Shown: positions 1,698 through 43,370, counted from the stretch's first letter. The stretch: DNA of 64,000 bases from a virus (IMGVR_UViG_3300011772_000022:16259-80258), one strand, 5' to 3'. Made by a program: numbers and translations. Notes: generated by a model from the letters alone, not told the origin.

Positions 1698-1950
1698 CAG
1701 TTGTGTTACGGATATACCGTTTCCGTATACCCTCTTATAGTTTCCTATAAGCTCAGACTATATCTTCAGGTTTTACCTGCTCCCCGTTTCGAGTTCACTT
1801 GAACCCTACGTCTCTCGACTAGTCGTTGAACCTTCGTGTATAGGTGTCTCTCGACGACTATAGTTGCTTGGCTGCTGATTACCCTCGACTTTACGTTAGG
1901 GCTTCCCAGACAATTAGAGGAGTTTATAAAGGAGACCTAGTTGTTGGTTA
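1698..1950 (-). other. putative self-splicing group I intron interrupting polymerase motif A (boundaries approximate)
   Basis: The upstream ORF ends ..NWWMTVGDLTNN* (T7-like WVQAGID with the catalytic Asp). The downstream ORF resumes ..GQMELRMTAHL after a ~250-nt gap. Joining after the U of GAT-T and before TA-GGT (following an intron-terminal G) gives WWMTVGD-LGQ-MELR, matching DYSQIELR. ACTGTAGG is present at both junctions. Confidence 0.5.
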
Positions 1951-3481
1951 AATCTCCTACAGTCATCCACCAGTTACGCTGAAGCTCTTGGAATGCATCA
2001 CGAATCTTCCATTGGATTTCATAACCAGTATGTTCCGGAGTACCTTCGTCACATGGTTCGAACTCTTTATCTTTCTCATTGTATCTAACAGGAACAACCG
2101 TAAACATAAACGCTTTCTGGATTGCCACCTCTAAAGCATTCGGGTCATCCTTATGTTCCTCACGTAATGGGTCAACCACCTTGTCATATTCTTCAATTGT
2201 AATGAAGTCCTTGAAGATGGCGCCACTCGGTAGATTCTGAAGGTTCGGTCCAGATGACGATAGACGACCTGTAACCGTACCTGTTTGATGGAAGGAGCCA
2301 TGTACCCGACCATCAATATCGATTGCCTTGATGATTCCTTTTACGTAAGTAGATTCAGTCTTTTTCAGTTTACGATATTTCAAGATTAATTCGATAAGTT
2401 CTAAGCCTTCCATTGTCAGGTCAGCCAGTGTTCGTTCTTCCGCAGCTTCTCGACCCATTTTCAATAACTCTTTTAGTGTAGCAGCATCAACCTTAACTGC
2501 CCCCTTGTCCGTCTTCGCAATGATAGGAAGTTTCTTCTCGGCATGTAGTACCTCTGCTAATTGTGGTCCACTTCCAATAGAGAATTCGTGTCCGGCTAAA
2601 GCGAAGATTTGTTTCTCAAGGATATCCATTTCTTTTAAGCAGCGGGCACCGATTGCTTCCAGTACCTCTTGGTTAACAGGCATACCACGTCGTTCTATCC
2701 CTTGAAGTACCCCAACGAACGGCATCTCCACTCCGAATAGAACATCAATAAGTTTCTGCTTTTGTAACAACGGATAGTATTTGATGAACAGTTTAGCAGT
2801 CGCCACAATATCCATCAGTGCGTACGGTAAGGTTAATGTAGCTGAAGCCTCATGGAACCGAAGTTTCTTCCCGAGAATCTTATCGAGCTTATTCATATCC
2901 ATCCCAAGGTCTTCTTTCGCCACGTACTTCAAACCGAAACGTTGACGTTCTTCTTTTACGAGCCATGCCATTACCTGTGTATCAGCACAGGATGCTCTTT
3001 TTGGTAGCTCTTCAATATGTTTCGCCATTGCTTCTTTCGTTTCCGGAGCCACCCATTTCGGTACACATAATTTCGGTCGTAAATCAATACCAACATTCAA
3101 GAAGATATCAGCATCATATTTCAGGTTGTGGGCAATTATCATCTTGTCGAAGTCCAAGAAGAATTCCTTCAGTGCCTCTACAACCATTTTGCGATTTAAG
3201 TATCCAGTCGTTCCCACAACCTTCTCTTGGTCAAGGTGGTACATCGTTGGAATGTACGCCGCATATTCTAGTTTCGTAATGTCATCGTCGATAATACCAA
3301 TACCGATACCACAAATTTCTGCTTTTAAGAATGATAGGTCAGTAGTCTCTAAATCGTACACAATATATTTTGCTTTCTTCAGCCGTGCTAATAACCTTTC
3401 TAATTGCATATGATACACAAGGATATTCTCAGCGTAATCAGGTAATTCTCTTACAGGTCTCTCCAATACTGGTGCTCCCAT
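1951..3481 (-). CDS. DNA polymerase I family, exon 1 (3'-5' exonuclease motifs YDLETTDL, HNLKYD, YALMD; thumb/fingers ..TGRLSSSGPNLQNLP)
   Basis: Conserved Exo I-III and polymerase motifs. Start set to MGAPVLE (ATG 3479-3481) behind RBS AAGAGGAGGAAACGGAA. Confidence 0.8.
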
Positions 3482-3575
3482 TTCCGTTTCCTCCTCTTTA
3501 AGTGAAAAGAAAGTACGTTCAGGTGTTGCGACCATGACGTACTTTCTTATAAGTGTTAAGTTTTAGTGTGCTAGA

Positions 3576-4866: not shown

Positions 4867-5078
4867 GTCATTTCCTCCTACATCATCTTAGTTTCCTACG
4901 GGTGTTTGCTTCACCCTCAGAGGTACGGAATTTGAATCACACGTTCTATATCATCACACAATCACACATTTGGAGGTTCCGTACCCCTGAGCAGGAAGCA
5001 AAATGCTTTCCTACCCATCACACAACTTTTGGAGTTATTGAGTTTTATCATGGTAGAAAGAGAATGGCTAGTTCCCTT

Positions 5079-5168
5079 CCTCTCAGAACACCGAGGTTAT
5101 CAAAGGGGGTTATAACGAAAGGAATCAGTTGGTAAACGTTTCGTTATCCTCGATGTTCTGAGAGGAAG
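5079..5168. other. long imperfect inverted repeat (21-bp outer stem, 9-bp inner stem) in a 365-bp non-coding gap
   Basis: cttcctctcagaacaccgagg ... cctcgatgttctgagaggaag enclosing ataacgaaa ... tttcgttat. A second 16-bp pairing joins 4914-4930 to 4978-4994. Confidence 0.5.
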
Positions 5169-5232
5169 AGGGGAATTATTTCGTTCCCGTTCTTTCCCTT
5201 GCCTTTATATTACCTTACCGTAAGCAACTACC

Positions 5233-5478: not shown

Positions 5479-5694
5479 TTATTCCGGGTTTCGAGCAATT
5501 GCGGCGTTTGCCCACATCATTGCTTCCTCAAGTTTCGTTTTAGCAAGTGATAACTCTCTTGAGGGTGGACATAGTGAATCTAGTGTCTGTGCTAAGAATT
5601 GGCATTTATTTCTTACCAATTCATGTGATTGTGCCTTATTTCCAGTTGGTGCATGATAAGCGAAGTTATTTTCATTTGACCCGATTGCCGCCAT
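5479..5694 (-). CDS. hypothetical protein (71 aa)
   Basis: RBS AAAGGGAGAGAAGCAAA before the ATG. Confidence 0.45.
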   Translation of the reverse strand: MAAIGSNENNFAYHAPTGNKAQSHELVRNKCQFLAQTLDSLCPPSRELSLAKTKLEEAMMWANAAIARNPE

Positions 5695-5748: not shown

Positions 5749-6060
5749 TTAACCGTTATTTTCAGCTTCTTCAAATTTTTCTGTTGCCTCTTCAAAAGCC
5801 TTGAACACCGCTTCTTTAAAACCATCAGGAATTGGTAACCCTTGTTTTAAATCGTAAGCATCCACTGTTCGTTTAATGGCTTTGATTTGGTCAGTTGAGT
5901 ATAATCGTCTTCCAGATTGCGCTCGATATGTTGCAGCAGGGATGATTCCGAGTCTTTCCCATTTGCGAATCGTTTGCCCTTGACGTTCTAGCTTATTAGC
6001 CAGTTCTCCGATAGTATGCAATTCGATGTCTTTACCACCTATAGTGTAGATTTTGCCCAT
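5749..6060 (-). CDS. MerR-family helix-turn-helix DNA-binding protein (start re-assigned to MGKIYTIG)
   Basis: YTIGELANKLERQGQTIRKWERLGIIP is a MerR-type HTH; RBS AAAGGAGGAAAGAAC before ATG 6058-6060. Confidence 0.55.
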   Translation of the reverse strand: MGKIYTIGGKDIELHTIGELANKLERQGQTIRKWERLGIIPAATYRAQSGRRLYSTDQIKAIKRTVDAYDLKQGLPIPDGFKEAVFKAFEEATEKFEEAENNG

Positions 6061-6623: not shown

Positions 6624-6728
6624 AATTTGTCTCCTCCTATATTATAAGTATATCTGCAACATCTATTACTTATACATATTATAACAGATGTTTCTCGAAC
6701 TATACAACGTTTTCTTTTTCCATTGCTG

Positions 6729-8884: not shown

Positions 8885-9410
8885 CCTCCTTCAAAATCCC
8901 CTGTAAAATCTGGTATACCTTAATCAGTTTATCTTTCTCGTTTACTTCCTTCACGGTATTTAGTTTGAATACTTCACCCTCCACCGTGTCTTGCTCGTAA
9001 TACATAATTCGGTCATTGTACTCCGTCAGGTATCCAATGATGTATGTCTTGCCATTTAAGTTGAATTTCGTGAACAATCGTAATTTCGTTCGCTGCTCCT
9101 CATCACCGATGATAACAATTTCGTTACCTTTGTGAGTCGGTGGGTAGATGATAACATCCTTTATGAACCCGTTAATCGTCATGGAGTTATCATCATTCTG
9201 TACAATTGAAAGTTGCGGATTATTCGCATGGTCATAAACCATCTTCAGTACGGTTTGTGTTTCTTCCGTATTTAATAATTCGCCTTCGGGAAGTTCTAAG
9301 ATTCTATCCACTATATGAAGAATCGTCGGTGGCTCAGTATGATTCAACCACAAGGCATTATCTTTTAGAAAGGTCTTCACTTGTTGTGATGCTTCGATGC
9401 GGTTCGTCAT
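8841..9410 (-). CDS. hypothetical protein (189 aa)
   Basis: ORF in the operon context. Confidence 0.45.
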   Translation of the reverse strand: MTNRIEASQQVKTFLKDNALWLNHTEPPTILHIVDRILELPEGELLNTEETQTVLKMVYDHANNPQLSIVQNDDNSMTINGFIKDVIIYPPTHKGNEIVIIGDEEQRTKLRLFTKFNLNGKTYIIGYLTEYNDRIMYYEQDTVEGEVFKLNTVKEVNEKDKLIKVYQILQGILKEDGYYDRIGANTPSI

Positions 9411-9628: not shown

Positions 9629-9999
9629 TATGCTTCCTCCTTTGGTAAGTGTCCTTGAATAAATTGGTTTACTTCTTCTCTTACTTCTTCTTGGTCTTTC
9701 TCTAACTTTCTATCTTTAAGATTCTTCTCACGTATCAGCCTACGTTTTTTCAATGTTTTTTCGAATTCTTCTGCATTTTTCTTGATGCGTTCTTCATTTT
9801 GTTCTTCTTGTCTTGCTATACGTTCATCCATTTCTTCTAGACAGAAATCGCAGTAATAAGGTTCATCATGAGCGTATACTTCTGTGTGTACATGGATGTT
9901 TTGCATCGCTTGATGAACCGCATGTCTGAAACAGAGACCGTCATGTTCATTCGTAAAGTATCTTACTTTGGCTTCGATTCTCATTTCACAATCACCCAA
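9628..9999 (-). CDS. hypothetical Cys/His-containing protein with Lys/Glu-rich tail
   Basis: ORF; CFRH...YYCDFC motif. Confidence 0.45.
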   Translation of the reverse strand: MGDCEMRIEAKVRYFTNEHDGLCFRHAVHQAMQNIHVHTEVYAHDEPYYCDFCLEEMDERIARQEEQNEERIKKNAEEFEKTLKKRRLIREKNLKDRKLEKDQEEVREEVNQFIQGHLPKEEA

Positions 10000-11161: not shown

Positions 11162-12231
11162 TATAAAATCCCATCCTTTCGTACTCTTTGTAATAAATGT
11201 GCTACCTGTTCTGGTGTGCATCCACCTAAGTCCTTATTACCATATGAATCAAATGTCCATATCTTGTTCTTTCTTCGTTGTAATTCTTCTCGTAAGAATT
11301 CTGTTCCTGTTGCTCCCGCCTCATCATTGTCGAGACCGAGTATTACATTTTCATACTGAGCAATCTTATCGACGTGCTCCCGAGAAGGTTTAGCTCCCAT
11401 AATAGCTCCAATGTCTATCTTGTCTTGAATGTTATGCATGTAAGCATATGGTACATCCATTGGTGATTCAATTACTAAAATGGTGTCCTTATTGTAAGGG
11501 TCCCATTTGTCTTCGTTGAATACGACATCACCTTTTGGGAAGTCGAGCATCATCTTCCATCCCGGATTCGGGAACATTTCGTCCGGAACACCTACACCAT
11601 ATCGGATAAAGTCATCATCTCGTGTTGCTCTTGAGATAACACCCATTAATCCTTTCTTACCATTGAACACTGGGATTACCGTTCGTTGTGACCGTTCGCA
11701 GTATCCAATTTGGAATACGTCCCGAACCATCTCGACCGATAATACCATTTGCCCATCTCTTCGAAGTGCCTGCGGGTGTAACGCTTTTAAATATTCATCC
11801 AGTACCGCCATGTCATACGTATTGGAATCAGAAATCTCACCCATTAATACCTTCAAGTCGATGGATAGTGCATCTAAGTGGCTCTCTGATTCATCCTCAG
11901 GAAGTAGGTCATGTTCTTCTAACCAAGCATACGCTTCTATGTCATTGACCATTCGACCTGTATTCCGAGATAAGAATTTCGCCGTCAGTTGTTCGAGTGT
12001 AAACCCGCCACATACATAACAGTTGGATGTTCCTGCCGGAGTCCATTGTGACTTTCTTCTTTCCCATATTGCCTTTTCTAAAATCCCGAAGGAACGTTTA
12101 CGGTCACCATTGCCATGTTTACCTTCAAAGTCCGGGCAATGCGCCATTACGTTATCATTTCTTGCTTGTTTGATTCCCTCTACACCGAAGTAGGAAAGAA
12201 ATTTCCATGCATCGAATGCCATTATAATCAC
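11161..12231 (-). CDS. DNA primase (DnaG-like: zinc-binding plus TOPRIM domains)
   Basis: HCPDFEGKHG...CYVCGG zinc finger; TOPRIM ESPMD ... LGLDNDEAG. Confidence 0.8.
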   Translation of the reverse strand: MIIMAFDAWKFLSYFGVEGIKQARNDNVMAHCPDFEGKHGNGDRKRSFGILEKAIWERRKSQWTPAGTSNCYVCGGFTLEQLTAKFLSRNTGRMVNDIEAYAWLEEHDLLPEDESESHLDALSIDLKVLMGEISDSNTYDMAVLDEYLKALHPQALRRDGQMVLSVEMVRDVFQIGYCERSQRTVIPVFNGKKGLMGVISRATRDDDFIRYGVGVPDEMFPNPGWKMMLDFPKGDVVFNEDKWDPYNKDTILVIESPMDVPYAYMHNIQDKIDIGAIMGAKPSREHVDKIAQYENVILGLDNDEAGATGTEFLREELQRRKNKIWTFDSYGNKDLGGCTPEQVAHLLQRVRKDGIL

Positions 12232-12769: not shown

Positions 12770-12996
12770 TGTTCTTCTACCTCTCTGTAAATTAAGATTA
12801 GTTTTGTTTCAAATTCAATTTCATTTCCGTTCCCGAATTGCCCCCAACCGATGTTACTTACCAAAAGATTAACGTATTCAATTCCGGGTTGCTGCAAGAA
12901 GTCTGTTACCTGCTGAGATGTAGTAATTCTTGTTCGACTTTTATCTTCATTGACAATAAGGTTATCTGTAAATTCTTTTACAAGTGGATTACTCAT
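12766..12996 (-). CDS. hypothetical protein (76 aa)
   Basis: ORF. Confidence 0.45.
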   Translation of the reverse strand: MSNPLVKEFTDNLIVNEDKSRTRITTSQQVTDFLQQPGIEYVNLLVSNIGWGQFGNGNEIEFETKLILIYREVEEQ

Positions 12997-13343
12997 TTCT
13001 TTCTCCTTTTCTTCTTGTCGTTTTCTTCAAGAACCTTATCAAGTAAGTCCGATAAGATTTCATCTAGTTGTCGTTGTGTTTCTTGTTTAACAGTTGTTAT
13101 CTTTCCGTTATACCCCTTCATGAAAGAGTACGTCTGTTCATTGAAGAAGATTACAATTGCATAAGTTTCTCCACCAACCGTTATTGTATGTGTTACTTGC
13201 ACCCTGCCTCTGGATGGATTAAATTGATTTGATAAGTCATTAACGTTTTCTACTCTTATTACTTCTACCGGACCTTGTGCTGAGTCTGCGGTGATTTCTT
13301 TAAGTGTCAAAAGTACGTTTACTTTCATGTGATTTTCCTCCAT
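12993..13343 (-). CDS. hypothetical protein (116 aa)
   Basis: RBS ATGGAGGAAAATCAC before the ATG. Confidence 0.5.
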   Translation of the reverse strand: MEENHMKVNVLLTLKEITADSAQGPVEVIRVENVNDLSNQFNPSRGRVQVTHTITVGGETYAIVIFFNEQTYSFMKGYNGKITTVKQETQRQLDEILSDLLDKVLEENDKKKRRKK

Positions 13344-13345
13344 TT

Positions 13346-13364
13346 GTACCTGTTATAATAGGTC
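13346..13364. promoter_or_regulatory. palindromic motif GTACCTGTTATAATAGGTC containing an extended -10 (TGTTATAAT)
   Basis: Intergenic; the same motif recurs at 14283-14303 and 26831-26853. Confidence 0.4.
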
Positions 13365-13418
13365 TTTGTTCGACCATTTTTAGTATACCCCATTTTGAGG
13401 AACTAGTGAAGAAGAGGA

Positions 13419-14165
13419 TTAATACTCTTCTTCACAATCGTCATAATATTTATCAACTTCTTTTGGGTCTAAAATAATCGTCGCTCCTGAGATGTACAGT
13501 TGTAACATGAAGTCATCGAACCCATGTAACCCTGCCATGATTGTTTCGTTCGTAATTTCCTTACCACGAATTGTTAGATTGTTAATTGTACCTGATTTGT
13601 TAACGGATAATCGGTAGCGGCAAGCATAGTTTGATTCATCCTCATTACCGTCAAAGTCAATGAATGCAAGGTTTGAATACTTCTTATAGTAGAAGGCACA
13701 GTCCATACCATCCAGACTCTCCCCATCGTCATCGTGAACTTTTTTCATATATGCTTCTTTCATTTTGTTAATGATTTCGGATAGTTTCCATTCTTTCTTC
13801 TCTACACTCAACATATCTTCCACGGAACTTTTCAACTTATCGATACCATTCAGTTTGATTACTTCGTCAAATTTTTCTTTCAGCATATTCATAACAAGCG
13901 TATTGTATGCACCAAGACCTAGTTCTTCTAAGTTCACATTCAAGTGATTCTTCAGCTCTTCCTTAACCGCCTTACTGAATGTACTGTAAGAACCGAATAC
14001 GTCATCAATAACACTCGCAAGACCTTTCTTCATATGCTTTTCCATCTCTTCTTTAATGAATCCACTTTGTACTAAATCGCTCACCGTTTCCTGCGAAATC
14101 TTTAGTAAGTCCACCGTTCCTTTTACTTCCTCAACCACTGTTACTTCGTCAACCTTCTTTGTCAT
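13419..14165 (-). CDS. hypothetical protein (248 aa)
   Basis: ORF. Confidence 0.5.
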   Translation of the reverse strand: MTKKVDEVTVVEEVKGTVDLLKISQETVSDLVQSGFIKEEMEKHMKKGLASVIDDVFGSYSTFSKAVKEELKNHLNVNLEELGLGAYNTLVMNMLKEKFDEVIKLNGIDKLKSSVEDMLSVEKKEWKLSEIINKMKEAYMKKVHDDDGESLDGMDCAFYYKKYSNLAFIDFDGNEDESNYACRYRLSVNKSGTINNLTIRGKEITNETIMAGLHGFDDFMLQLYISGATIILDPKEVDKYYDDCEEEY

Positions 14166-14282
14166 TGTTATTTCCTCCTTGTGTGTTTGTTTTCCTTATA
14201 AATTAAGTTTATCTCAGTCTGGCAAACTAGTGTACCAGTATTTTACATTTTGTTTTTGTCATGATGTCCTTCACAAATAAAA

Positions 14283-14303
14283 GTGTACCTGTAATAGGTA
14301 CAC
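14283..14303. promoter_or_regulatory. palindromic motif GTGTACCTGTAATAGGTACAC (variant of the 13346/26831 motif)
   Basis: 8-bp perfect arms GTGTACCT/AGGTACAC in an intergenic gap. Confidence 0.35.
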
Positions 14304-14310
14304 TAGTGAA

Positions 14311-14538
14311 TCAGAGTTTTTTAAGTAGTCTATGCAAACGGACATGTGCATCATTTATGTGCCTATAAATATCACGAAAAGATTCACCCTCAGCCGTAGC
14401 AGATACATAGTTAGGATGGTCACTCATTAAGTCTTTTACTTCTTTTAAGTCCTCTTCTACCCGGTTAATCTCAGTAGCAACCTCTACCGCCCCTTGTGCT
14501 AATTGACTAATTTGTATACGTAGTTTGTCATCTCTCAT
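14311..14538 (-). CDS. hypothetical protein (75 aa)
   Basis: RBS TTAGGAGGAGAAAATA before the ATG. Confidence 0.45.
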   Translation of the reverse strand: MRDDKLRIQISQLAQGAVEVATEINRVEEDLKEVKDLMSDHPNYVSATAEGESFRDIYRHINDAHVRLHRLLKKL

Positions 14539-16656: not shown

Positions 16657-17358
16657 TTAAACCCCTCCATATTGTTCTCGTATTCTTCTTGCTTCCTGTA
16701 TTTTACGCCAATCCGGAAATGAGGATTGGTCCTCAAAATATAGTTTAATCGTGTTGCCTTCAATTAAAGATGCAACGGATACACCATACGTTTGTGATAA
16801 CATCGTAAGGGAAGCATTTGTCGTAAAGATTGTGGGTAGTAATCGATTGGTACGGTAGCGAATCAGTTCATCAAATACAGATGGAGCTAGTTCGCTGCGC
16901 TCTGATTGGAACCCTTTACCTACATCATCGACAACTAAAAAATCGCTATTCTTCACTCGTTTATCGTACAGGTCTGCTTTGCCGGAATCATACCATGCTC
17001 CTGCATAGAGATTAATGATTCCTGCAAGGTTTGCGAATTGCGTTCGGAATCCCTGCCTGATAGCAGCCTTTTGGACCGATACGGCAAGGTGGGTTTTGCC
17101 CACCCCGTTCATACCGTATAAAAATATTCCAGTACCTTCTTTACGATGGGTACGGATTCTAGCCGCATAATCGACCAGAGTTTGTGCCGTTTCAAAACGT
17201 TTGGGAATGATTACTCCACTATTATCTCGTATAGGGAAAGTTCGAAAATCGGCGGGATAGTATTTTTCTAATATGCCATGTCTTCTTTGTGTTTTAGGTT
17301 CCAAAGGACCGAAGACGTCACTCCCAATTAAAGTTTCCAGTTCCGTCATTGCCATCAT
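16657..17358 (-). CDS. helicase loader, DnaC/IstB-like AAA+ ATPase
   Basis: GMNGVGKTHLAVSV Walker A; FLVVDDVG Walker B. Confidence 0.7.
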   Translation of the reverse strand: MMAMTELETLIGSDVFGPLEPKTQRRHGILEKYYPADFRTFPIRDNSGVIIPKRFETAQTLVDYAARIRTHRKEGTGIFLYGMNGVGKTHLAVSVQKAAIRQGFRTQFANLAGIINLYAGAWYDSGKADLYDKRVKNSDFLVVDDVGKGFQSERSELAPSVFDELIRYRTNRLLPTIFTTNASLTMLSQTYGVSVASLIEGNTIKLYFEDQSSFPDWRKIQEARRIREQYGGV

Positions 17359-25377: not shown

Positions 25378-26796
25378 TTAACGTTTTTTGATGTCTAATA
25401 AATTCATAATCATATCAGAGTAGCCCGTGATAAGTTTCTGTGGCTCCCCGTTCTCCTTTGTTTTCCAACGTAGTCCTTCATGGATTAATACCTTTGTCAT
25501 TTCATATAGGTCTTCACTTAAAGTCTCATCAATATAGATAACATCATCCCCAAAGTGATATAGACCTTTTACGGCGATACCATTGCTTTCTAATTCTGAA
25601 GCGAATCTAACAGGGGGTAAATCATCTTTTCGTTCCAAGCCTAATACCTTTGCTGCTTTTTCTTCTGCTACCTCTAAGTCTAGGACAGGAGCAGACGTTG
25701 CAGCAGTTGTAGATTGTTTAACTTTAGACGTGTTCTTAATCACATCATCTACTTTCGGGAATCCAATGCTACCTAAGAAGTATCTCCATGCAGTAGGAAG
25801 TTCGATTAAGTGGTAACCCATATTTTCAGCTTCCTTATTCTTATCATTGTTTTCCAGAGAGGAAAGCATTAGCTTCTCTACGTCTACTGAATGACATTCT
25901 GCTACCGCCTGCTTCCATAGAGAGCGCATTGTATCCAAGTCTGTATCGCAATCATAGGCAACCATTGGTCCTTCACGAAGGTCAGCATATTTAGAAGCCT
26001 TCTCTTTATCCATCGCACCGTAAATGAAGTTCTCGATAAATTGCGTATCATATTCCATTTCTTTAAATACAACTCTTCCGATTTTCATTAATGCATCTGA
26101 GATGTTTACTTTCGTTCTATCTCGGTTCATCAGAGAGCGGTCTGTCAGATTGTATGCATATTTAATTTCCAGTGGGCTTTCGAAGCCAAAGAATTCTTCC
26201 TTCTTGATTTCTCCAATAAGAACCCCACGAATCCATAACTCATGATAGCGACCCGGTAGTACGGAATTACGAACCACATCATCTTGGTCAATATCTTCAA
26301 ATGGAGCAAACCCTTTAACGGCATGTAAGAATTCTTCTTCAGATACCTTCGCTTCAACCAGTGTTCCAACCCCTCGGTCATTCGGTTCGACTTCAATAGT
26401 CAAGACGTTTGTGTTGTGCTCTGTTTGCACCATTACGCCTTTGAATGTGTAGCCTACCGTTTCGACTTTGTGTTCGATATTATTTCTCGCCATTGCTAAA
26501 AGAAATAATTTCCACCCTTCACCGAAGTTACCTAATCCGTCTTCGTCATCTCGTTGTTCAGATTCTCCAATGTATAGATATCGTTTATCGAATCCTGTGT
26601 GTTGGTCTTTCAGTACGCCTACGCCTCTTTCATTGTCATAGAACAGTGTAGCCTTCTTACCAGATTTAACAGTTCCATATGCGATGTTTTGTGCTGCTTC
26701 TCGAAGTCCTTCCATTGCGCCCCAGTAGCTCACATAGTTTTCTGTTAGTCCCGTTGGAATAATTTCGTTACAAATCTCTAATTTATCAGTTGTCAT
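25378..26796 (-). CDS. hypothetical 472-aa protein with a weak GHKL-ATPase-like N-terminal signature
   Basis: EGLREAAQNIAYG / YDNERGVGV / DGLGNFGEGWK loosely resemble the N, G1 and G2 boxes of the Bergerat fold. Tentative. Confidence 0.5.
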   Translation of the reverse strand: MTTDKLEICNEIIPTGLTENYVSYWGAMEGLREAAQNIAYGTVKSGKKATLFYDNERGVGVLKDQHTGFDKRYLYIGESEQRDDEDGLGNFGEGWKLFLLAMARNNIEHKVETVGYTFKGVMVQTEHNTNVLTIEVEPNDRGVGTLVEAKVSEEEFLHAVKGFAPFEDIDQDDVVRNSVLPGRYHELWIRGVLIGEIKKEEFFGFESPLEIKYAYNLTDRSLMNRDRTKVNISDALMKIGRVVFKEMEYDTQFIENFIYGAMDKEKASKYADLREGPMVAYDCDTDLDTMRSLWKQAVAECHSVDVEKLMLSSLENNDKNKEAENMGYHLIELPTAWRYFLGSIGFPKVDDVIKNTSKVKQSTTAATSAPVLDLEVAEEKAAKVLGLERKDDLPPVRFASELESNGIAVKGLYHFGDDVIYIDETLSEDLYEMTKVLIHEGLRWKTKENGEPQKLITGYSDMIMNLLDIKKR

Positions 26797-26837
26797 TTTA
26801 AGCCCTCCAATAGTTTTATATGTGTGAAGTAATACCT

Positions 26838-26845
26838 GTTATAAT
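26838..26845 (+). promoter_or_regulatory. extended -10 promoter element TGTTATAAT (plus strand) inside the palindromic motif AATACCTGTTATAATAGGTATGT
   Basis: TGn plus TATAAT consensus; third copy of the 13346 motif. Confidence 0.35.
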
Positions 26846-26851
26846 AGGTAT

Positions 26852-27090
26852 GTCGTTCGATGTACCCTTATGTTAACCCATATTGGGGAAGATGTAAAGA
26901 GGTTTACCGAAACTATTGGTTTGCTTTTTGTTTACCAAAAATCAACAGTGACAAAAGCAAAAAATATATGGTAAGTTTGTATCATATTATGTGTCGAGTC
27001 GCATAATATAGATTAAGGATTGAATCTCTGGTTCGTCGTTAAGACCCATATCTTATAAAGTCTACCCTCGGTTGGGGTAGACCTTTTTCT
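26852..27090 (+). ncRNA. candidate plus-strand non-coding RNA (~240 nt) between the extended -10 promoter and the intrinsic terminator
   Basis: No RBS-preceded ORF. Bounded by the TGTTATAAT promoter (26838-26845) and the hairpin GTCTACCC-TCGGTT-GGGTAGAC plus T5 (27059-27090). It is the only long non-coding stretch in the replication region. Confidence 0.3.
27059..27090. terminator. bidirectional rho-independent terminator (8-bp stem; T-run on plus, TTTATAA on minus)
   Basis: aaagtctaccctcggttggggtagacctttttctt. Confidence 0.5.
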
Positions 27091-27155: not shown

Positions 27156-27191
27156 AAAGACCACCCCTATTCGGAGTGGTCTTCTTTTTCG
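27156..27191. terminator. hairpin AGACCAC..GTGGTCT plus TCTTTTTC overlapping the stop of the FtsK-like gene
   Basis: aaagaccacccctattcggagtggtcttctttttcg. Confidence 0.4.
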
Positions 27192-28639
27192 TTCAAGTCT
27201 TCAGCTCTGAGAATGTGAAAGGTTGAGTCGCCCAAGTCTTCTGGAAATTCAATCGGAGGTGTGTCGATTGGAGGAAGAGAAGATTCGAACACCTCTCTGT
27301 CATATTGTACCCGCATTTCCTCCATATATTCATGTGCCTTCTTCGTAGATAAAAATGGTACCTGAACCTCCGTTGTTAGATGACCAGATTGCAGGATAGC
27401 CCGCCCGGGAATATTCGGATTCAATTTAGCAGCTCCATCCTCTTGTTCACCTAGTAAGATTCGAGAGTTCAATTCATTCCGTACCCTGAATGCAACCGTT
27501 ATCGGGATATTGGCTTTACTATCACCCGGAAGTACCTTTGCATCCGGACGTTGAGTTGCCACGAATAAATGTATCCCTAATGCTCTTGCTAATCGTAGCA
27601 GCCTGTTAATCATGGAATGGGTGTATTCTAAAAGGTCTTTGGCTTTCATCATTCCCTTAGGTGGAGCCGAATTACCTTTAGTAGGTACAATGTTCAATCC
27701 ATAGATATAATCCTGCAAGTGTTCCGGGATGTTCCATAGCTCACTCTTCCCTACGCTTTCTGGTGAGAGTTCCGCCAGTTCATCGATAACCAACAAAATG
27801 TATGGTAGGTGCCCGACTGCTTCACGATACTCTCGAATGTTTGTGACCCCTGCATTGTAGAAGTCAGCCTGACGTTTATCCATTTCGGCTTCCACCGTTC
27901 GTAGCACTTCAAATGCTGAGAAGGCTTCCTTTGAGATTTCCCTGACATGTGGAGCATTTTTAAATAATTGAAATTCAAGACCTCCCTTTAAATCAATCAT
28001 ATAAATTTCTAAGTCGGTCGGTGTCTTCAGTGACATGAGTGATGTAAGAGCCTGCCGTACGAATACGGATTTACCTCCACCAGTTTCCCCACCGACCAAG
28101 ATGTGTGGACGTTTACCTAAGTCAACAATCTGTAAACCTTTCTTGCTCTCTCCTATAATGATAGGAAGTTCCATTCCTTCGGCTCCATCAAATCGTCTCG
28201 TGCTGAAAGTTTCTTGATGTTTTAAATGACCAGTTGAAATTTCCATTACGCAATACTCATCCTCCTGATACGTTCCAATCTCGGCATTGAGGTTTAGTTC
28301 AATAGCCGGAAGTTTACGGTTAATATCATCGATAGACATACCTGCGGGAAGTTTAAAATAGGCTTTGTATAAATAGTCCTCCTTTCTCTCCTCTTTTATA
28401 TAAGAAGGCGTGTATCTTTTGGTCTCACCTAAAAGCGGTTTGTGTTCCTTGTATAATCCGAATGACTCCCAGTTGTTAGCCAAGCGATAAGTTAACGGTG
28501 ATTTGAAGCGGTGGGTCTGATAAATTTTAAACCCCGCATAAGATGTTAAAGCAATGCCACCAACCTTAAATACATTTGCACCAACAATTTTCATAGCGGT
28601 TCCCAATACCGCCGGAGTAAGAATACTCATCAGTCCCAC
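27167..28639 (-). CDS. FtsK/SpoIIIE-family DNA-translocase-like ATPase with an N-terminal membrane anchor
   Basis: N-terminal hydrophobic segment; Walker A VGGETGGGKS; Walker B LLVIDE; the conserved ATQRP motif of the FtsK family. Confidence 0.75.
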   Translation of the reverse strand: MGLMSILTPAVLGTAMKIVGANVFKVGGIALTSYAGFKIYQTHRFKSPLTYRLANNWESFGLYKEHKPLLGETKRYTPSYIKEERKEDYLYKAYFKLPAGMSIDDINRKLPAIELNLNAEIGTYQEDEYCVMEISTGHLKHQETFSTRRFDGAEGMELPIIIGESKKGLQIVDLGKRPHILVGGETGGGKSVFVRQALTSLMSLKTPTDLEIYMIDLKGGLEFQLFKNAPHVREISKEAFSAFEVLRTVEAEMDKRQADFYNAGVTNIREYREAVGHLPYILLVIDELAELSPESVGKSELWNIPEHLQDYIYGLNIVPTKGNSAPPKGMMKAKDLLEYTHSMINRLLRLARALGIHLFVATQRPDAKVLPGDSKANIPITVAFRVRNELNSRILLGEQEDGAAKLNPNIPGRAILQSGHLTTEVQVPFLSTKKAHEYMEEMRVQYDREVFESSLPPIDTPPIEFPEDLGDSTFHILRAEDLNEKEDHSE

Positions 28640-29523: not shown

Positions 29524-29958
29524 AAGATGAACTTATTTAGAAAGAGGACGACTTATGAAACGGAATCCATAAGCAGTCAGATATACAAGTGGTGAGTAGG
29601 CACCTGTATGTCATGATTCAAGTTTAGGATGAAGCTGCATTATACCCCATTGGAAGAAATCCCATAGAAAAGAGTTACCCTTAGGAATATTATACTATGA
29701 ATTCGTTTTATTGCCAACATTTTCTTGTATGAGCCTTACGAATTTTCGCTCCTCTTCCTTTACCTGTTCAATCATTCTTTGAAAATACTTATCTGGCAAT
29801 TCGTATTCCCCCTCAGTGTTTTGTTTTACAGTATATGAGTTAGTAGACAAGTTTATTCATCCTTTCGTTTTGTAATGGATGGACAACCTTCTTGTACCAT
29901 ACATTCCGCCGAGTCTCGCCCCAAGGCGAAGGGAGCGGAATGTATGCTTTCTATATAC

Positions 29959-30484: not shown

Positions 30485-30563
30485 GCAATCTTTAGTTTAT
30501 TTATAGCTTTATATTGTTAGTTAAAATTCTTAACCTCATGTGGTAAAGAATCTTTACCTCATT
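30485..30563. repeat. conserved ~78-bp intergenic element, copy B
   Basis: gcaatctttagtttatttatagctttatattgttagttaaaattcttaacctcatgtggtaaagaatctttacctcat; same orientation as copies A and C. Confidence 0.8.
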
Positions 30564-32562: not shown

Positions 32563-32969
32563 TTTCTTCTCACCACCTCTCGTCCTAATACCTATTATAA
32601 GATGTATTAGCAAATATTACAAGACATAAAAAAGAAACCTACCACATATAATGATAGATTCCTCTTTTAACTTAATTGTGTATCGCCTTTAGGCTTTTGA
32701 TTTTTTGGTTTTTTGGGTGTAACACATCGACGTGCGACGAAGGATAAAGGTCTATGCTAATCTATAAACCAAAGATGCGGTACGGTTCTTAGCTCCACCG
32801 TGGAGAAATACGTTATCCTGCGTATCCAAACCTCCTAGTTGCGTTAAGAGGTTTCATAGAGATGAGTAAAGAGGGTTCAGTACCCTCTAACTCATGCAAT
32901 TATCGCCGCATGGGGTCGTTGTAATTACAAACTAATTGTACCACATATTTCCTGCCTGTACAATCCCTA

Positions 32970-32998
32970 TAGACAACGGTTCTTCCAACCGCTATAAT
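32970..32998 (+). promoter_or_regulatory. sigma-A-type promoter for the HNH gene: -35 TAGACA, 17-bp spacer, -10 TATAAT
   Basis: tAGACAacggttcttccaaccgcTATAATga, about 20 nt upstream of the HNH ATG. Confidence 0.5.
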
Positions 32999-33015
32999 GA
33001 AATAAAATATGTAGG

Positions 33016-33543
33016 ATGGAGGAACACAAGTTGGCTTCATGGAATATTGGTGACCAAGTATTTTATTTTACTATCTTAGAAAAAACAAATGAAAAGAAAA
33101 GAGGGTATTATCTTTTTAGAGCAAGATGTGTATGTGGAAAAGAAGAGTTAATTCACAAAGGACAGATATTCCCAGACAGAAAAACATCATGTGGTTGTAT
33201 TCGACATAACAAATTAGTGGCAAGAAATAAGTCACATGGTCTTTCTAAACATCCGTTATACGCTCGATGGAAGCAAATTCGTAATCGATGTCACAATCCT
33301 AATTCAGATAAGTACATATTCTATGGAGCAAGAGGTATCGAGATGTGTGAAGAATGGAGGTCGAACCCACAAGCGTTCTTTGATTGGTATTTGAGTAAAA
33401 CAGATGACCTTTCATTAACCGTAGACCGTAAAGATAATAATGGTAATTATGAACCTGATAATTGTCGTCTCATTACCATACAGGAACAACAAAGAAATAG
33501 GAGACCTCGTTCCTGTTATAGAAGAGAAAAGGATGCTCAGTGA
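33016..33543 (+). CDS. free-standing HNH homing-endonuclease-like protein (only plus-strand gene in the window)
   Basis: SKHPLYARWKQIRNRCHNPNSDKYIFYGARGIEMCEEWRSNPQAFFDWY is the phage HNH_3/AP2-type endonuclease signature; it has its own promoter and terminator. Confidence 0.75.
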   Translation: MEEHKLASWNIGDQVFYFTILEKTNEKKRGYYLFRARCVCGKEELIHKGQIFPDRKTSCGCIRHNKLVARNKSHGLSKHPLYARWKQIRNRCHNPNSDKYIFYGARGIEMCEEWRSNPQAFFDWYLSKTDDLSLTVDRKDNNGNYEPDNCRLITIQEQQRNRRPRSCYRREKDAQ

Positions 33544-43288: not shown

Positions 43289-43370
43289 GCAATCTTTAGT
43301 TTATTTCTCTTTATATTGTTAGTTAAGATTCTTTACCTCATAGAAGTAAAGAATCTTTACCTGATATAAC
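43289..43370. repeat. conserved ~78-bp intergenic element, copy C (tandem palindromes GTTAAGATTCTTTAC / GTAAAGAATCTTTAC)
   Basis: gcaatctttagtttatttctctttatattgttagttaagattctttacctcatagaagtaaagaatctttacctgat. Confidence 0.8.

Follow-up and report, generated by a model that had tools for sequence, protein, structure and literature searches.

Coliphage 186 reportedly relies on a switch built from face-to-face promoters, pR and pL, and Gram-positive bacteria possess promoters of the extended -10 (TGn or '-16 region') class. In phage lambda, where PR and PRE also converge, a fast-binding repressor that is not a strong roadblock relieves interference (Hao et al. 2016, PMC5001618). In the Ecl18kI (SsoII-type) restriction-modification system, the facing sigma-70-type promoters Pm and Pr compete directly for polymerase (Protsenko et al. 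2009, PMC2760811). One of these promoters carries TATAAT and no -35 element; when a protein occupies the operator at one of the pair, that promoter is shut and the other rises as a result (PMC2760811).

Here we describe an imperfect dyad of 20 bp that occurs four times in a stretch of viral DNA of 64,000 nucleotides (IMGVR_UViG_3300011772_000022:16259-80258; hereafter the window) and that combines a -10 hexamer with symmetric arms. As in Ecl18kI, two of its copies are predicted to place a TATAAT lacking a -35 opposite another promoter, with an operator at one member of the pair. The transcription starts of Ecl18kI, however, are 50 bp apart and were mapped experimentally, whereas those predicted here give transcripts that overlap by 10-12 nt; the regulator there is a methyltransferase, and here it is a candidate known from its sequence. 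The pR/pL and PR-PRE pairs share with our locus the use of convergent promoters in phage development, in which a repressor of the interfering promoter regulates its target indirectly. They are lysis-lysogeny switches with two coding transcripts and interference that arises mostly from elongation over 60-300 bp, whereas nothing is encoded antisense at our locus and interference would result from the mutual exclusion of initiation complexes.

Three further comparisons involve single elements. A TGnTATAAT sequence with a weak or absent -35 is what the extended -10 promoters of Gram-positive bacteria display, and one of our copies (copy 3) is evidently such a promoter, predicted in the sense direction; the two copies flagged at the outset differ in facing away from every gene and in having symmetric flanks, which a promoter can do without. 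Downstream operators of the lac O1 type and phage operators that overlap the -10 are likewise dyads of ~20 bp, placed over the -10 or near +20 and present in several copies per genome, but the dyad described here is systematically broken, keeps a one-way TATAAT, and has a cognate repressor that is only a candidate. MerR-family operators are dyads of ~18-22 bp with ACC..GGT-type arms, and a MerR-family protein is encoded next to one of our copies. Their defining place is the spacer of 19-20 bp between -35 and -10, whereas our dyad either has the -10 at its centre or follows the promoter.

The phage and its relatives

The window is part of a phage genome of ~107 kb with ~40% G+C, in which structural genes, lysis genes and a long early/replication region follow each other on essentially one strand, the minus strand, and ribosome-binding sites are of the GGAGG type. 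The original prediction had placed all genes surrounding the motif on the minus strand, and this is the orientation of nearly all genes of the window. The only convincing plus-strand gene encodes an HNH endonuclease (33016-33543; phrog_374, E 3e-44) and lies within a unit at 32970-33543 (+) with its own near-consensus promoter, TAGACA-17-TATAAT, at 32970-32998.

Megablast revealed no close DNA relatives among known phages. The nearest cultured phage is Bacillus phage BCD7, with ~30-38% amino-acid identity in single proteins, and public assemblies hold one close relative of 107.9 kb (MTEU01003794.1 / MTEW01000974.1). When the neighbouring genes were used to find protein relatives in IMG/VR, searches with a single protein returned none and a profile returned one distant locus. 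A literature search found no paper on the motif sequence.

Recurrence and anatomy of the dyad

Three intergenic palindromes sharing ACCT..AGGT arms around a TTATAA core had originally been grouped as one motif. Site 1 (GTACCTGTTATAATAGGTC, 13346-13364) and site 3 (AATACCTGTTATAATAGGTATGT, 26831-26853) are as described, and both carry on the plus strand the extended -10 sequence TGTTATAAT (13351-13359 and 26837-26845), in agreement with its assignment to two of the three sites. Site 2 (GTGTACCTGTAATAGGTACAC) was also found in its place at 14283-14303, but it lacks the three central bases (ATA), has no TATAAT, and was wrongly classed with the others as a -10/operator; it is an intrinsic terminator (see below).

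The 16-mer ACCTGTTATAATAGGT has exact copies at 13348-13363 and 26834-26849. Allowing up to three mismatches, it gives 7 strand-matches against 0.79 expected, a count that none of 100 shuffles reached, so that the motif is more frequent than chance would have it. The 20-mer of site 3, scanned through the window with up to three mismatches, marks four loci against 0.00 expected, and a scan with a degenerate dyad gives 4 matches against 0.25. Two members of the family (6672-6691 and 32588-32607) had escaped the original prediction; they have 17-18 of 20 positions in common with the site-3 20-mer and belong to promoters that are not paralogous. All four copies are intergenic in a window of which ~8% (8.1%) is intergenic, and the four-copy feature is real, non-random and promoter-associated.

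Copy 1 (site 1) occupies 13346..13365 on the plus strand (20-mer GTACCTGTTATAATAGGTCT), with the 16-mer core at 13348-13363 and TGTTATAAT at 13351-13359. Copy 2 (site 3) is the plus-strand 20-mer ATACCTGTTATAATAGGTAT at 26832..26851, with TGTTATAAT at 26837-26845. Copies 3 and 4 are in sense orientation on the minus strand: copy 3 (ACATCTGTTATAATATGTAT, 6672..6691) has TGTTATAAT at 6686..6678 as its -10, and copy 4 (ATACATCTTATAATAGGTAT, 32588..32607) has TATAAT at 32599..32594. Their consensus is ATAC[C/A]T-N-TTATAA-N-A[G/T]GTAT, and aligned on the TATAAT strand the four read A-T-A-C-(C/A)-T-(G/C)-T-TATAAT-A-(G/T)-G-T-A-T.

The centre of the dyad is the sigma-A -10 hexamer TATAAT itself. The core is symmetric at 14 of its 16 positions and the site-3 20-mer at 18 of 20, and each of the eight half-sites matches ATACCT at 4-6 of 6 positions, a symmetry not needed by a -10 element alone. 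The dyad is broken at one and the same place in all four copies. Symmetry would require an A there, but the TATAAT strand has G or C, and consequently the opposite strand reads TATAA(C/G), which lacks the essential final T. A perfect dyad would present TATAAT on both strands or TATAAC on both, and the observed form is a one-way -10. At sites 1 and 3 a single T-to-C change (at 13359 and 26845) would make the dyad perfect at the cost of the antisense -10; the antisense T has been kept in both paralogues although their flanks diverged.

The plus strand of sites 1 and 3 thus carries the TGnTATAAT of an extended -10 promoter, but the -35 hexamer expected 16-18 bp upstream is absent (GATTTT/TGATTT at site 1, TATATG/TTATAT at site 3), and the promoter scan called a plus-strand promoter at neither. 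A -35 hexamer is helpful, not obligatory, in this class. TG is present in copies 1, 2 and 3, where the -35 is poor, and missing from copy 4, where it is good, and such compensation for a poor -35 by TG is usual in real promoters. Perfect TGNTATAAT occurs six times in 128 kb (both strands), five of them within the 8.1% of DNA that is intergenic (binomial estimate ~2e-5); its two intergenic plus-strand cases are exactly sites 1 and 3.

Copy 3 completes the promoter TTGTAT-18-TGTTATAAT at 6707..6678, with a weak -35 (TTGTAT, 6707..6702) and a spacer of 18 bp. This is the sole good promoter in a gap of 105 nt; it heads an operon of a 174-aa protein and a MerR-like protein, and conservation with the close relative begins ~15 nt upstream of its -35. 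It went uncalled in the promoter scan, since its -35 matches at 3 of 6 positions. The promoter of copy 4, TTGTAA-17-TATAAT (32622..32594), directly follows a strong terminator (-24 kcal/mol) and is conserved in the relative. We predict that copies 3 and 4 act as the -10 of early sense promoters that drive, between them, the operon of an SPFH protein and that of the MerR-like regulator and an Acb2/Tad1-like protein.

As expected of a palindromic operator, the dyad recurs at several promoters, each copy lying at or just downstream of a predicted one. The proposal that the motif is an operator overlapping a promoter therefore finds sequence evidence that fits it, namely a dyad on a perfect -10 hexamer, its repetition in four promoter regions and a TATAAT confined to one strand, and the overlap itself is a predicted one. 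In our judgement the motif is probably a regulatory module that acts at the DNA level and is tied to promoters.

Conservation

Copies 1 and 2 are fully conserved in the close relative, as is the terminator at site 2. Both leaders are identical there from the -35 through the start codon, while adjacent coding sequence falls to 56% amino-acid identity, and at site 1 conservation starts exactly at the -35, the upstream coding end having diverged. Overall, whole intergenic regions are 96-100% identical against 56-89% in neighbouring proteins, a pattern that argues for constraint on regulatory regions as blocks; for the same reason footprinting yields no per-base information. No further copies of the module were found in the relative's sequence beyond the low end of the window.

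Among related phages, the motif is shared by this one relative, at both orthologous sites, and missing from more distant ones: the relatives at ~40% identity and BCD7 contain no comparable palindrome or antisense TGNTATAAT and confirm only the second promoter type described below. A composite of TCGAAC, a spacer of N3-6 and the palindrome gave metagenome matches in the same close relative alone, at both orthologous sites, and was absent from IMG/VR. The bare 17-mer had 20 matches in IMG/VR, all single copies in unrelated contexts and mostly in coding sequence, which we treated as chance and did not admit to the family. In two of these unrelated contigs (L013 1225-1241 and L022 1242-1258) the 17-mer stands directly upstream of GGAGG and ATG with TGTTATAAT in the sense direction, an independent case of this sequence placed as an ordinary promoter -10.

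Predicted facing promoters at sites 1 and 3

Sites 1 and 3 lie within paralogous promoter-leader segments of ~70 nt each, a context absent from the original prediction. On the minus strand these segments comprise a sigma-A-type promoter, an invariant TCGAAC, the palindrome and a ribosome-binding site, in that order. The predicted sense promoter facing copy 1 (13382..13410, minus strand) is TTCACT-17-TATACT, with ATGGGG just upstream of the -10 and a start at ~13375; its paralogue facing copy 2 (26870..26898, minus strand) is TTTACA-17-TAACAT, with a start at ~26863. The TCGAAC box is found on the minus strand at 13368..13373 in the site-1 leader and at 26855..26860 in the site-3 leader, in the same position relative to both -10 hexamers, and its TCGA falls within 1 bp of the midpoint between them. 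With the start taken as 7 nt after the -10, copy 1, which reads ACCTATTATAACAGGT on the minus strand, occupies ~+13..+28 of its predicted sense transcript, 6 nt upstream of the GGAGG of ORF 12993-13328. Copy 2 occupies ~+13..+32, upstream of the 472-aa gene at 25378-26796. The core 16-mer corresponds to +13..+28 at site 1 and +15..+30 at site 3.

The facing -10 hexamers are 22 bp apart at site 1 (13354-13359 on the plus strand, 13387..13382 on the minus strand) and 24 bp apart at site 3 (26840-26845 and 26875..26870). Predicted starts are at ~13366(+) and ~13375(-), and at ~26852(+) and ~26863(-), so that the 5' ends of the predicted transcripts overlap by 10-12 nt at both sites. Opposite-strand promoters would thus point at each other within one polymerase footprint, by prediction, and two initiation complexes could not coexist. 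The alternative originally offered, a bidirectional promoter element, does not describe sites 1 and 3, since the plus-strand -10 converges on the predicted minus-strand promoter instead of standing back-to-back with it, and no plus-strand gene lies downstream of either site.

The minus-strand promoters belong to a type with ATGGG before the -10 and an inverted repeat of the GGGG/CCCC kind around the -35, which has further examples in the window and in a relative at 40% identity, all of them sense-oriented and ahead of genes. This second promoter type (GGGG...CCCC-type repeat around the -35, then (T)GGGTATA(A/C)T) was observed in the window at 496-531, 13382-13436, 26870-26905 and 29639-29670, and in L003 at 9056-9090, 9928-9960, 11880-11915 and 17060-17094; it is conserved across the phage clade. 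At 13406-13436 the repeat forms a hairpin of 11 bp (-18.4 kcal/mol), whose pairing the relative keeps with different bases (-14.1 kcal/mol).

The paralogy of the two segments raises the question of whether the palindrome has a function of its own or was carried along when a whole promoter-leader segment was duplicated. The occurrence of sites 1 and 3 in paralogous segments of ~70 nt is what such a passenger would show, and the single relative that carries the sites is too close to inform. The flanks, however, have fallen to ~50-60% identity around a 17-mer, a TCGAAC box and promoter hexamer regions that stayed intact, and copies 3 and 4 share their 17-18 of 20 positions at promoters that are not paralogous, all of which makes a passenger improbable.

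Possible antisense transcription from the inverted copies

Downstream of site 3, a hairpin at 27060..27082 is a two-way terminator, followed on the plus strand by CTTTTTCTTG, and lies ~230 nt from the predicted plus-strand start of copy 2, where it would bound a possible antisense or small RNA. The gap that contains it is unusually long (370 nt) and 96% conserved. The putative plus-strand RNA of 240 nt folds with z -2.9, against z -2.7 for the other strand, and so the signal does not discriminate between strands. No plus-strand terminator was found after site 1, and no plus-strand gene or obvious antisense target follows the inverted copies.

These observations bear on the view that sites 1 and 3 are extended -10 promoters and nothing else, producing an RNA of ~230 nt from ~26852 to 27060-27082 and, at site 1, a transcript antisense to the 3' end of gene 13419-14165, with arms that have no binding role. 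The perfect TGNTATAAT, the terminator with its CTTTTTCTTG and the long, conserved, structured gap would all suit that view. It is nevertheless unlikely: both strands give the same structure signal, Rfam offers no match, site 1 has no plus-strand terminator, and the arms ATACCT/AGGTAT, common to two sense copies, would go unexplained.

Site 2 and RNA-level alternatives

On the minus strand, site 2 (14282..14304) reads AGTGTACCTATTACAGGTACACT followed by TTTATTTGTG. It forms a stem of 9 bp (-12.1 kcal/mol, z -4.9) and sits directly after the stop codon of ORF 14311-14538, features which identify it as an intrinsic terminator and not as a copy of the module. Its likeness to sites 1 and 3 is nonetheless real and more than chance as judged from sequence: ACCTATT...ACAGGT occurs only at these three sites, and the chance of a third match is estimated at ~0.01. 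Three minus-strand copies of the heptamer CACTAGT lie in the intergenic gaps flanking gene 13419-14165: one adjoins the site-2 terminator (14302-14308), one lies 70 nt downstream of it (14226-14232) and one falls in the -35 of the promoter at 13410 (13402-13408). Pairing with the left arm of the terminator would be possible for the copy at 14226-14236.

Sites 1 and 3 show no such properties. Their sense-strand hairpins are weak (-3.0 and -4.9 kcal/mol), contain an A.C mismatch and lack a U tract; the antisense strand pairs better, and the best fold of the site-1 leader omits the palindrome hairpin altogether. At and near the sites, Rfam searches with gathering and permissive thresholds gave no match reaching the gathering score, only chance-level matches at E > 0.1. 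Nor were any tRNAs found in the analysis.

An element acting in the sense RNA was considered in this light. A hairpin ACCU-AUUAUAAC-AGGU after a linear box UCGAAC could, like boxA/boxB of the lambda nut site or HK022 put, load an antitermination or processing factor that carries transcription past terminators such as site 2. Its appeal lies in the arrangement, with two copies in the same orientation early in long operons that contain terminators, an order of box, spacer of 4-5 nt and hairpin, and a real terminator, site 2, that shares the top of the stem and part of the loop sequence. An element of the nut or put kind calls for a stable hairpin in every transcribed leader, which is not what the folds above reveal, and two of the four family members sit at a -10, upstream of their own start and thus outside the sense RNA. 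Taken together with the better pairing of the antisense strand, this renders the leader element highly improbable.

Least credible of all is a sigma-dependent promoter-proximal pause, in which TATTAT on the non-template strand at ~+17..+22 would recapture sigma-A, as at lambda PR' before Q loads. TATTAT, which matches at 5 of 6 positions including the key A and T, is indeed present on the sense strand of both leaders. The better hexamer, however, is on the other strand, the arms and the two sense-promoter copies stay unexplained, the operons concerned are replication operons and not a late one, and the recorded Pfam hits include no Q-like protein.

A candidate regulator

The operon driven by copy 3 encodes a MerR-family winged-helix protein of 103 aa (5749..6060, minus strand), which matches Pfam MerR_1 at 28.5 bits against a cut-off of 21.6 and among solved structures matches MerR 4ua1 best. 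The Pfam hits recorded for the early region of the phage and its relative include no other DNA-binding regulator, and neither Pfam nor PHROGs revealed a DNA-binding domain in the first genes downstream of the sites (111, 76, 134 and 472 aa). We name it as a lead, not a result, and its binding to the dyad is guesswork. A MerR-type operator would place the dyad within a spacer of 19-20 bp between -35 and -10; in the sense copies 3 and 4 the dyad has the -10 itself at its centre, with spacers of 18 and 17 bp. An alternative reading with a MerR-like spacer, TCGAAC-19/20-TACAAA/TATTAC, was rejected for its poor hexamers without a final T. No homologues of the protein were close enough for a co-occurrence test.

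Other regulator boxes were compared with the sites by eye. The LexA/Cheo box was matched in its CGAAC half only, the Spo0A box at 5-6 of 7 positions, and the CtsR, TnrA/GlnR and Fur/PerR boxes did not fit; all were set aside.

A second family of palindromes, unrelated to the flagged motif, is present in the window as an intergenic element of ~77 nt with three copies of 88-100% identity (788-865, 30485-30562 and 43289-43366). On the minus strand it consists of two 15-bp palindromes (GTAAAGAWTCTTTAC) 24 bp apart, followed by AACAATATAAAG...AAATAAACTAAAGATTGC. It lies upstream of genes starting at 840, 30435 and 43287 and looks like a second operator/promoter family, which counts against linking the MerR-like protein to the flagged motif.

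Possible mechanisms: promoter competition or operator

The most economical mechanism would be promoter competition. We infer that the phage uses one -10/operator module four times, with a -10 functional on one strand only. In copies 3 and 4 the TATAAT would run along the genes as the -10 of early sense promoters; copies 1 and 2 would be inverted uses of the same module, 22-24 bp downstream of the -10 of the second, weaker promoter type. The promoters facing them are predicted to head two replication operons, one running from the 472-aa gene to DnaB and the other from the 111-aa gene to primase and helicase. If host RNA polymerase occupied the inverted extended -10 (TGTTATAAT, which lacks a -35), it would be directed against the sense promoter; as the predicted starts are 10-12 bp apart, the complexes could not coexist, and competition would hold the sense promoter down. 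A short antisense RNA may be a further product of this polymerase. If a dimeric phage protein, for which the MerR-like protein is the only visible candidate, occupied the dyad, all four -10 cores would be shut together, the early sense operons turned off and the replication operons relieved of interference.

We hold this facing-promoter mechanism at sites 1 and 3, a promoter core and operator competing with the sense promoters, tentatively, as a serious possibility that falls somewhat short of an even chance. Against it stand the inverted copies without any -35 (GATTTT, TTATAT), the want of a plus-strand gene or obvious antisense target and the missing plus-strand terminator after site 1. The flagged copies are also paralogous, and their shared asymmetry could be inherited and not selected; the motif is present in two genomes only and identical in them, which leaves no per-base evolutionary test. 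Moreover, a protein sitting at +13..+30 might be an obstacle to sense transcription in its own right, which makes the sign of the regulation uncertain.

In a plainer account, the dyad is the site of a dimeric repressor and nothing more. At +13..+30 the repressor would block initiation, escape or elongation, at copies 3 and 4 it would overlap the -10, and the plus-strand TGTTATAAT would be an inactive by-product of an operator centred on TTATAA. The degree of dyad symmetry given above, the occurrence of four copies at classical repressor positions, a MerR-family DNA-binding protein encoded in one of the controlled operons and the inverted copies without a -35 all accord with it. What it does not explain is that all four copies break the dyad at the same position and so leave TATAAT on one strand, or that the leader copies keep the antisense T though C would improve symmetry; furthermore, a perfect extended -10 in AT-rich intergenic DNA likely binds polymerase, 'intended' or not. 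Taken on its own, the operator account is somewhat doubtful; an operator downstream of the promoter, its TATAAT incidental, is nonetheless nearly as probable as the facing-promoter mechanism.

Should promoter competition apply, the module may be seen as a timing device. A 20-bp '-10 plus operator' cassette, used in both orientations by a new clade of ~107-kb phages, would drive immediate-early operons (anti-defence genes and a regulator) in its forward orientation; reversed, in the leaders of two replication operons, it would keep those off and make a short antisense or small RNA, until a single early dyad-binding protein flipped early off and replication on in one step. This scenario is speculative and, taken whole, rather unlikely. 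If the facing-promoter reading itself is right, it would supply a compact wiring diagram, open to test, of the early-to-middle switch in a clade of phages without a characterised member. The diagram comprises four defined sites, one candidate regulator and a pair of point mutations that part 'operator' from 'antisense promoter', and the few facing-promoter systems known would gain a case of promoter competition in which the starts overlap. If that reading is wrong, the sites would still be the best-defined regulatory landmarks of the early region, useful for annotating transcription units.

Other features of the window

Several features elsewhere in the window were noted in passing. A group I intron (1734-1991, minus strand; Rfam RF00028, 80.7 bits, E 6e-19) separates the exons of DNA polymerase A (ORFs 1937-3535 and 946-1689), a gap that in the relative contains an HNH_3 endonuclease ORF (L030 8376-8795). 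The intergenic region at 4867-5232 (minus strand, 366 nt) carries long inverted repeats (e.g. CCTCTTCCTCTCAGAACATCGAGG ... CCTCGGTGTTCTGAGAGGAAGGG) and GTGTGAT repeats, and may be a structured RNA or an origin-like region. Two accessory genes on the minus strand encode an Acb2/Tad1-hairpin family protein (5479-5694; anti-CBASS/Thoeris sponge family) and an FtsK/SpoIIIE-like ATPase (27167-28639). Finally, a noncoding transcription unit at 32627-32962 (minus strand) is equipped with a promoter of its own that includes TG (TGTACA-16-TACAAT) and, at 32669..32627, with a strong terminator (-24 kcal/mol). It has no Rfam match, and its ~330 nt are near-identical in the relative save for one variable patch of ~20 nt; this unit is a candidate structured RNA.
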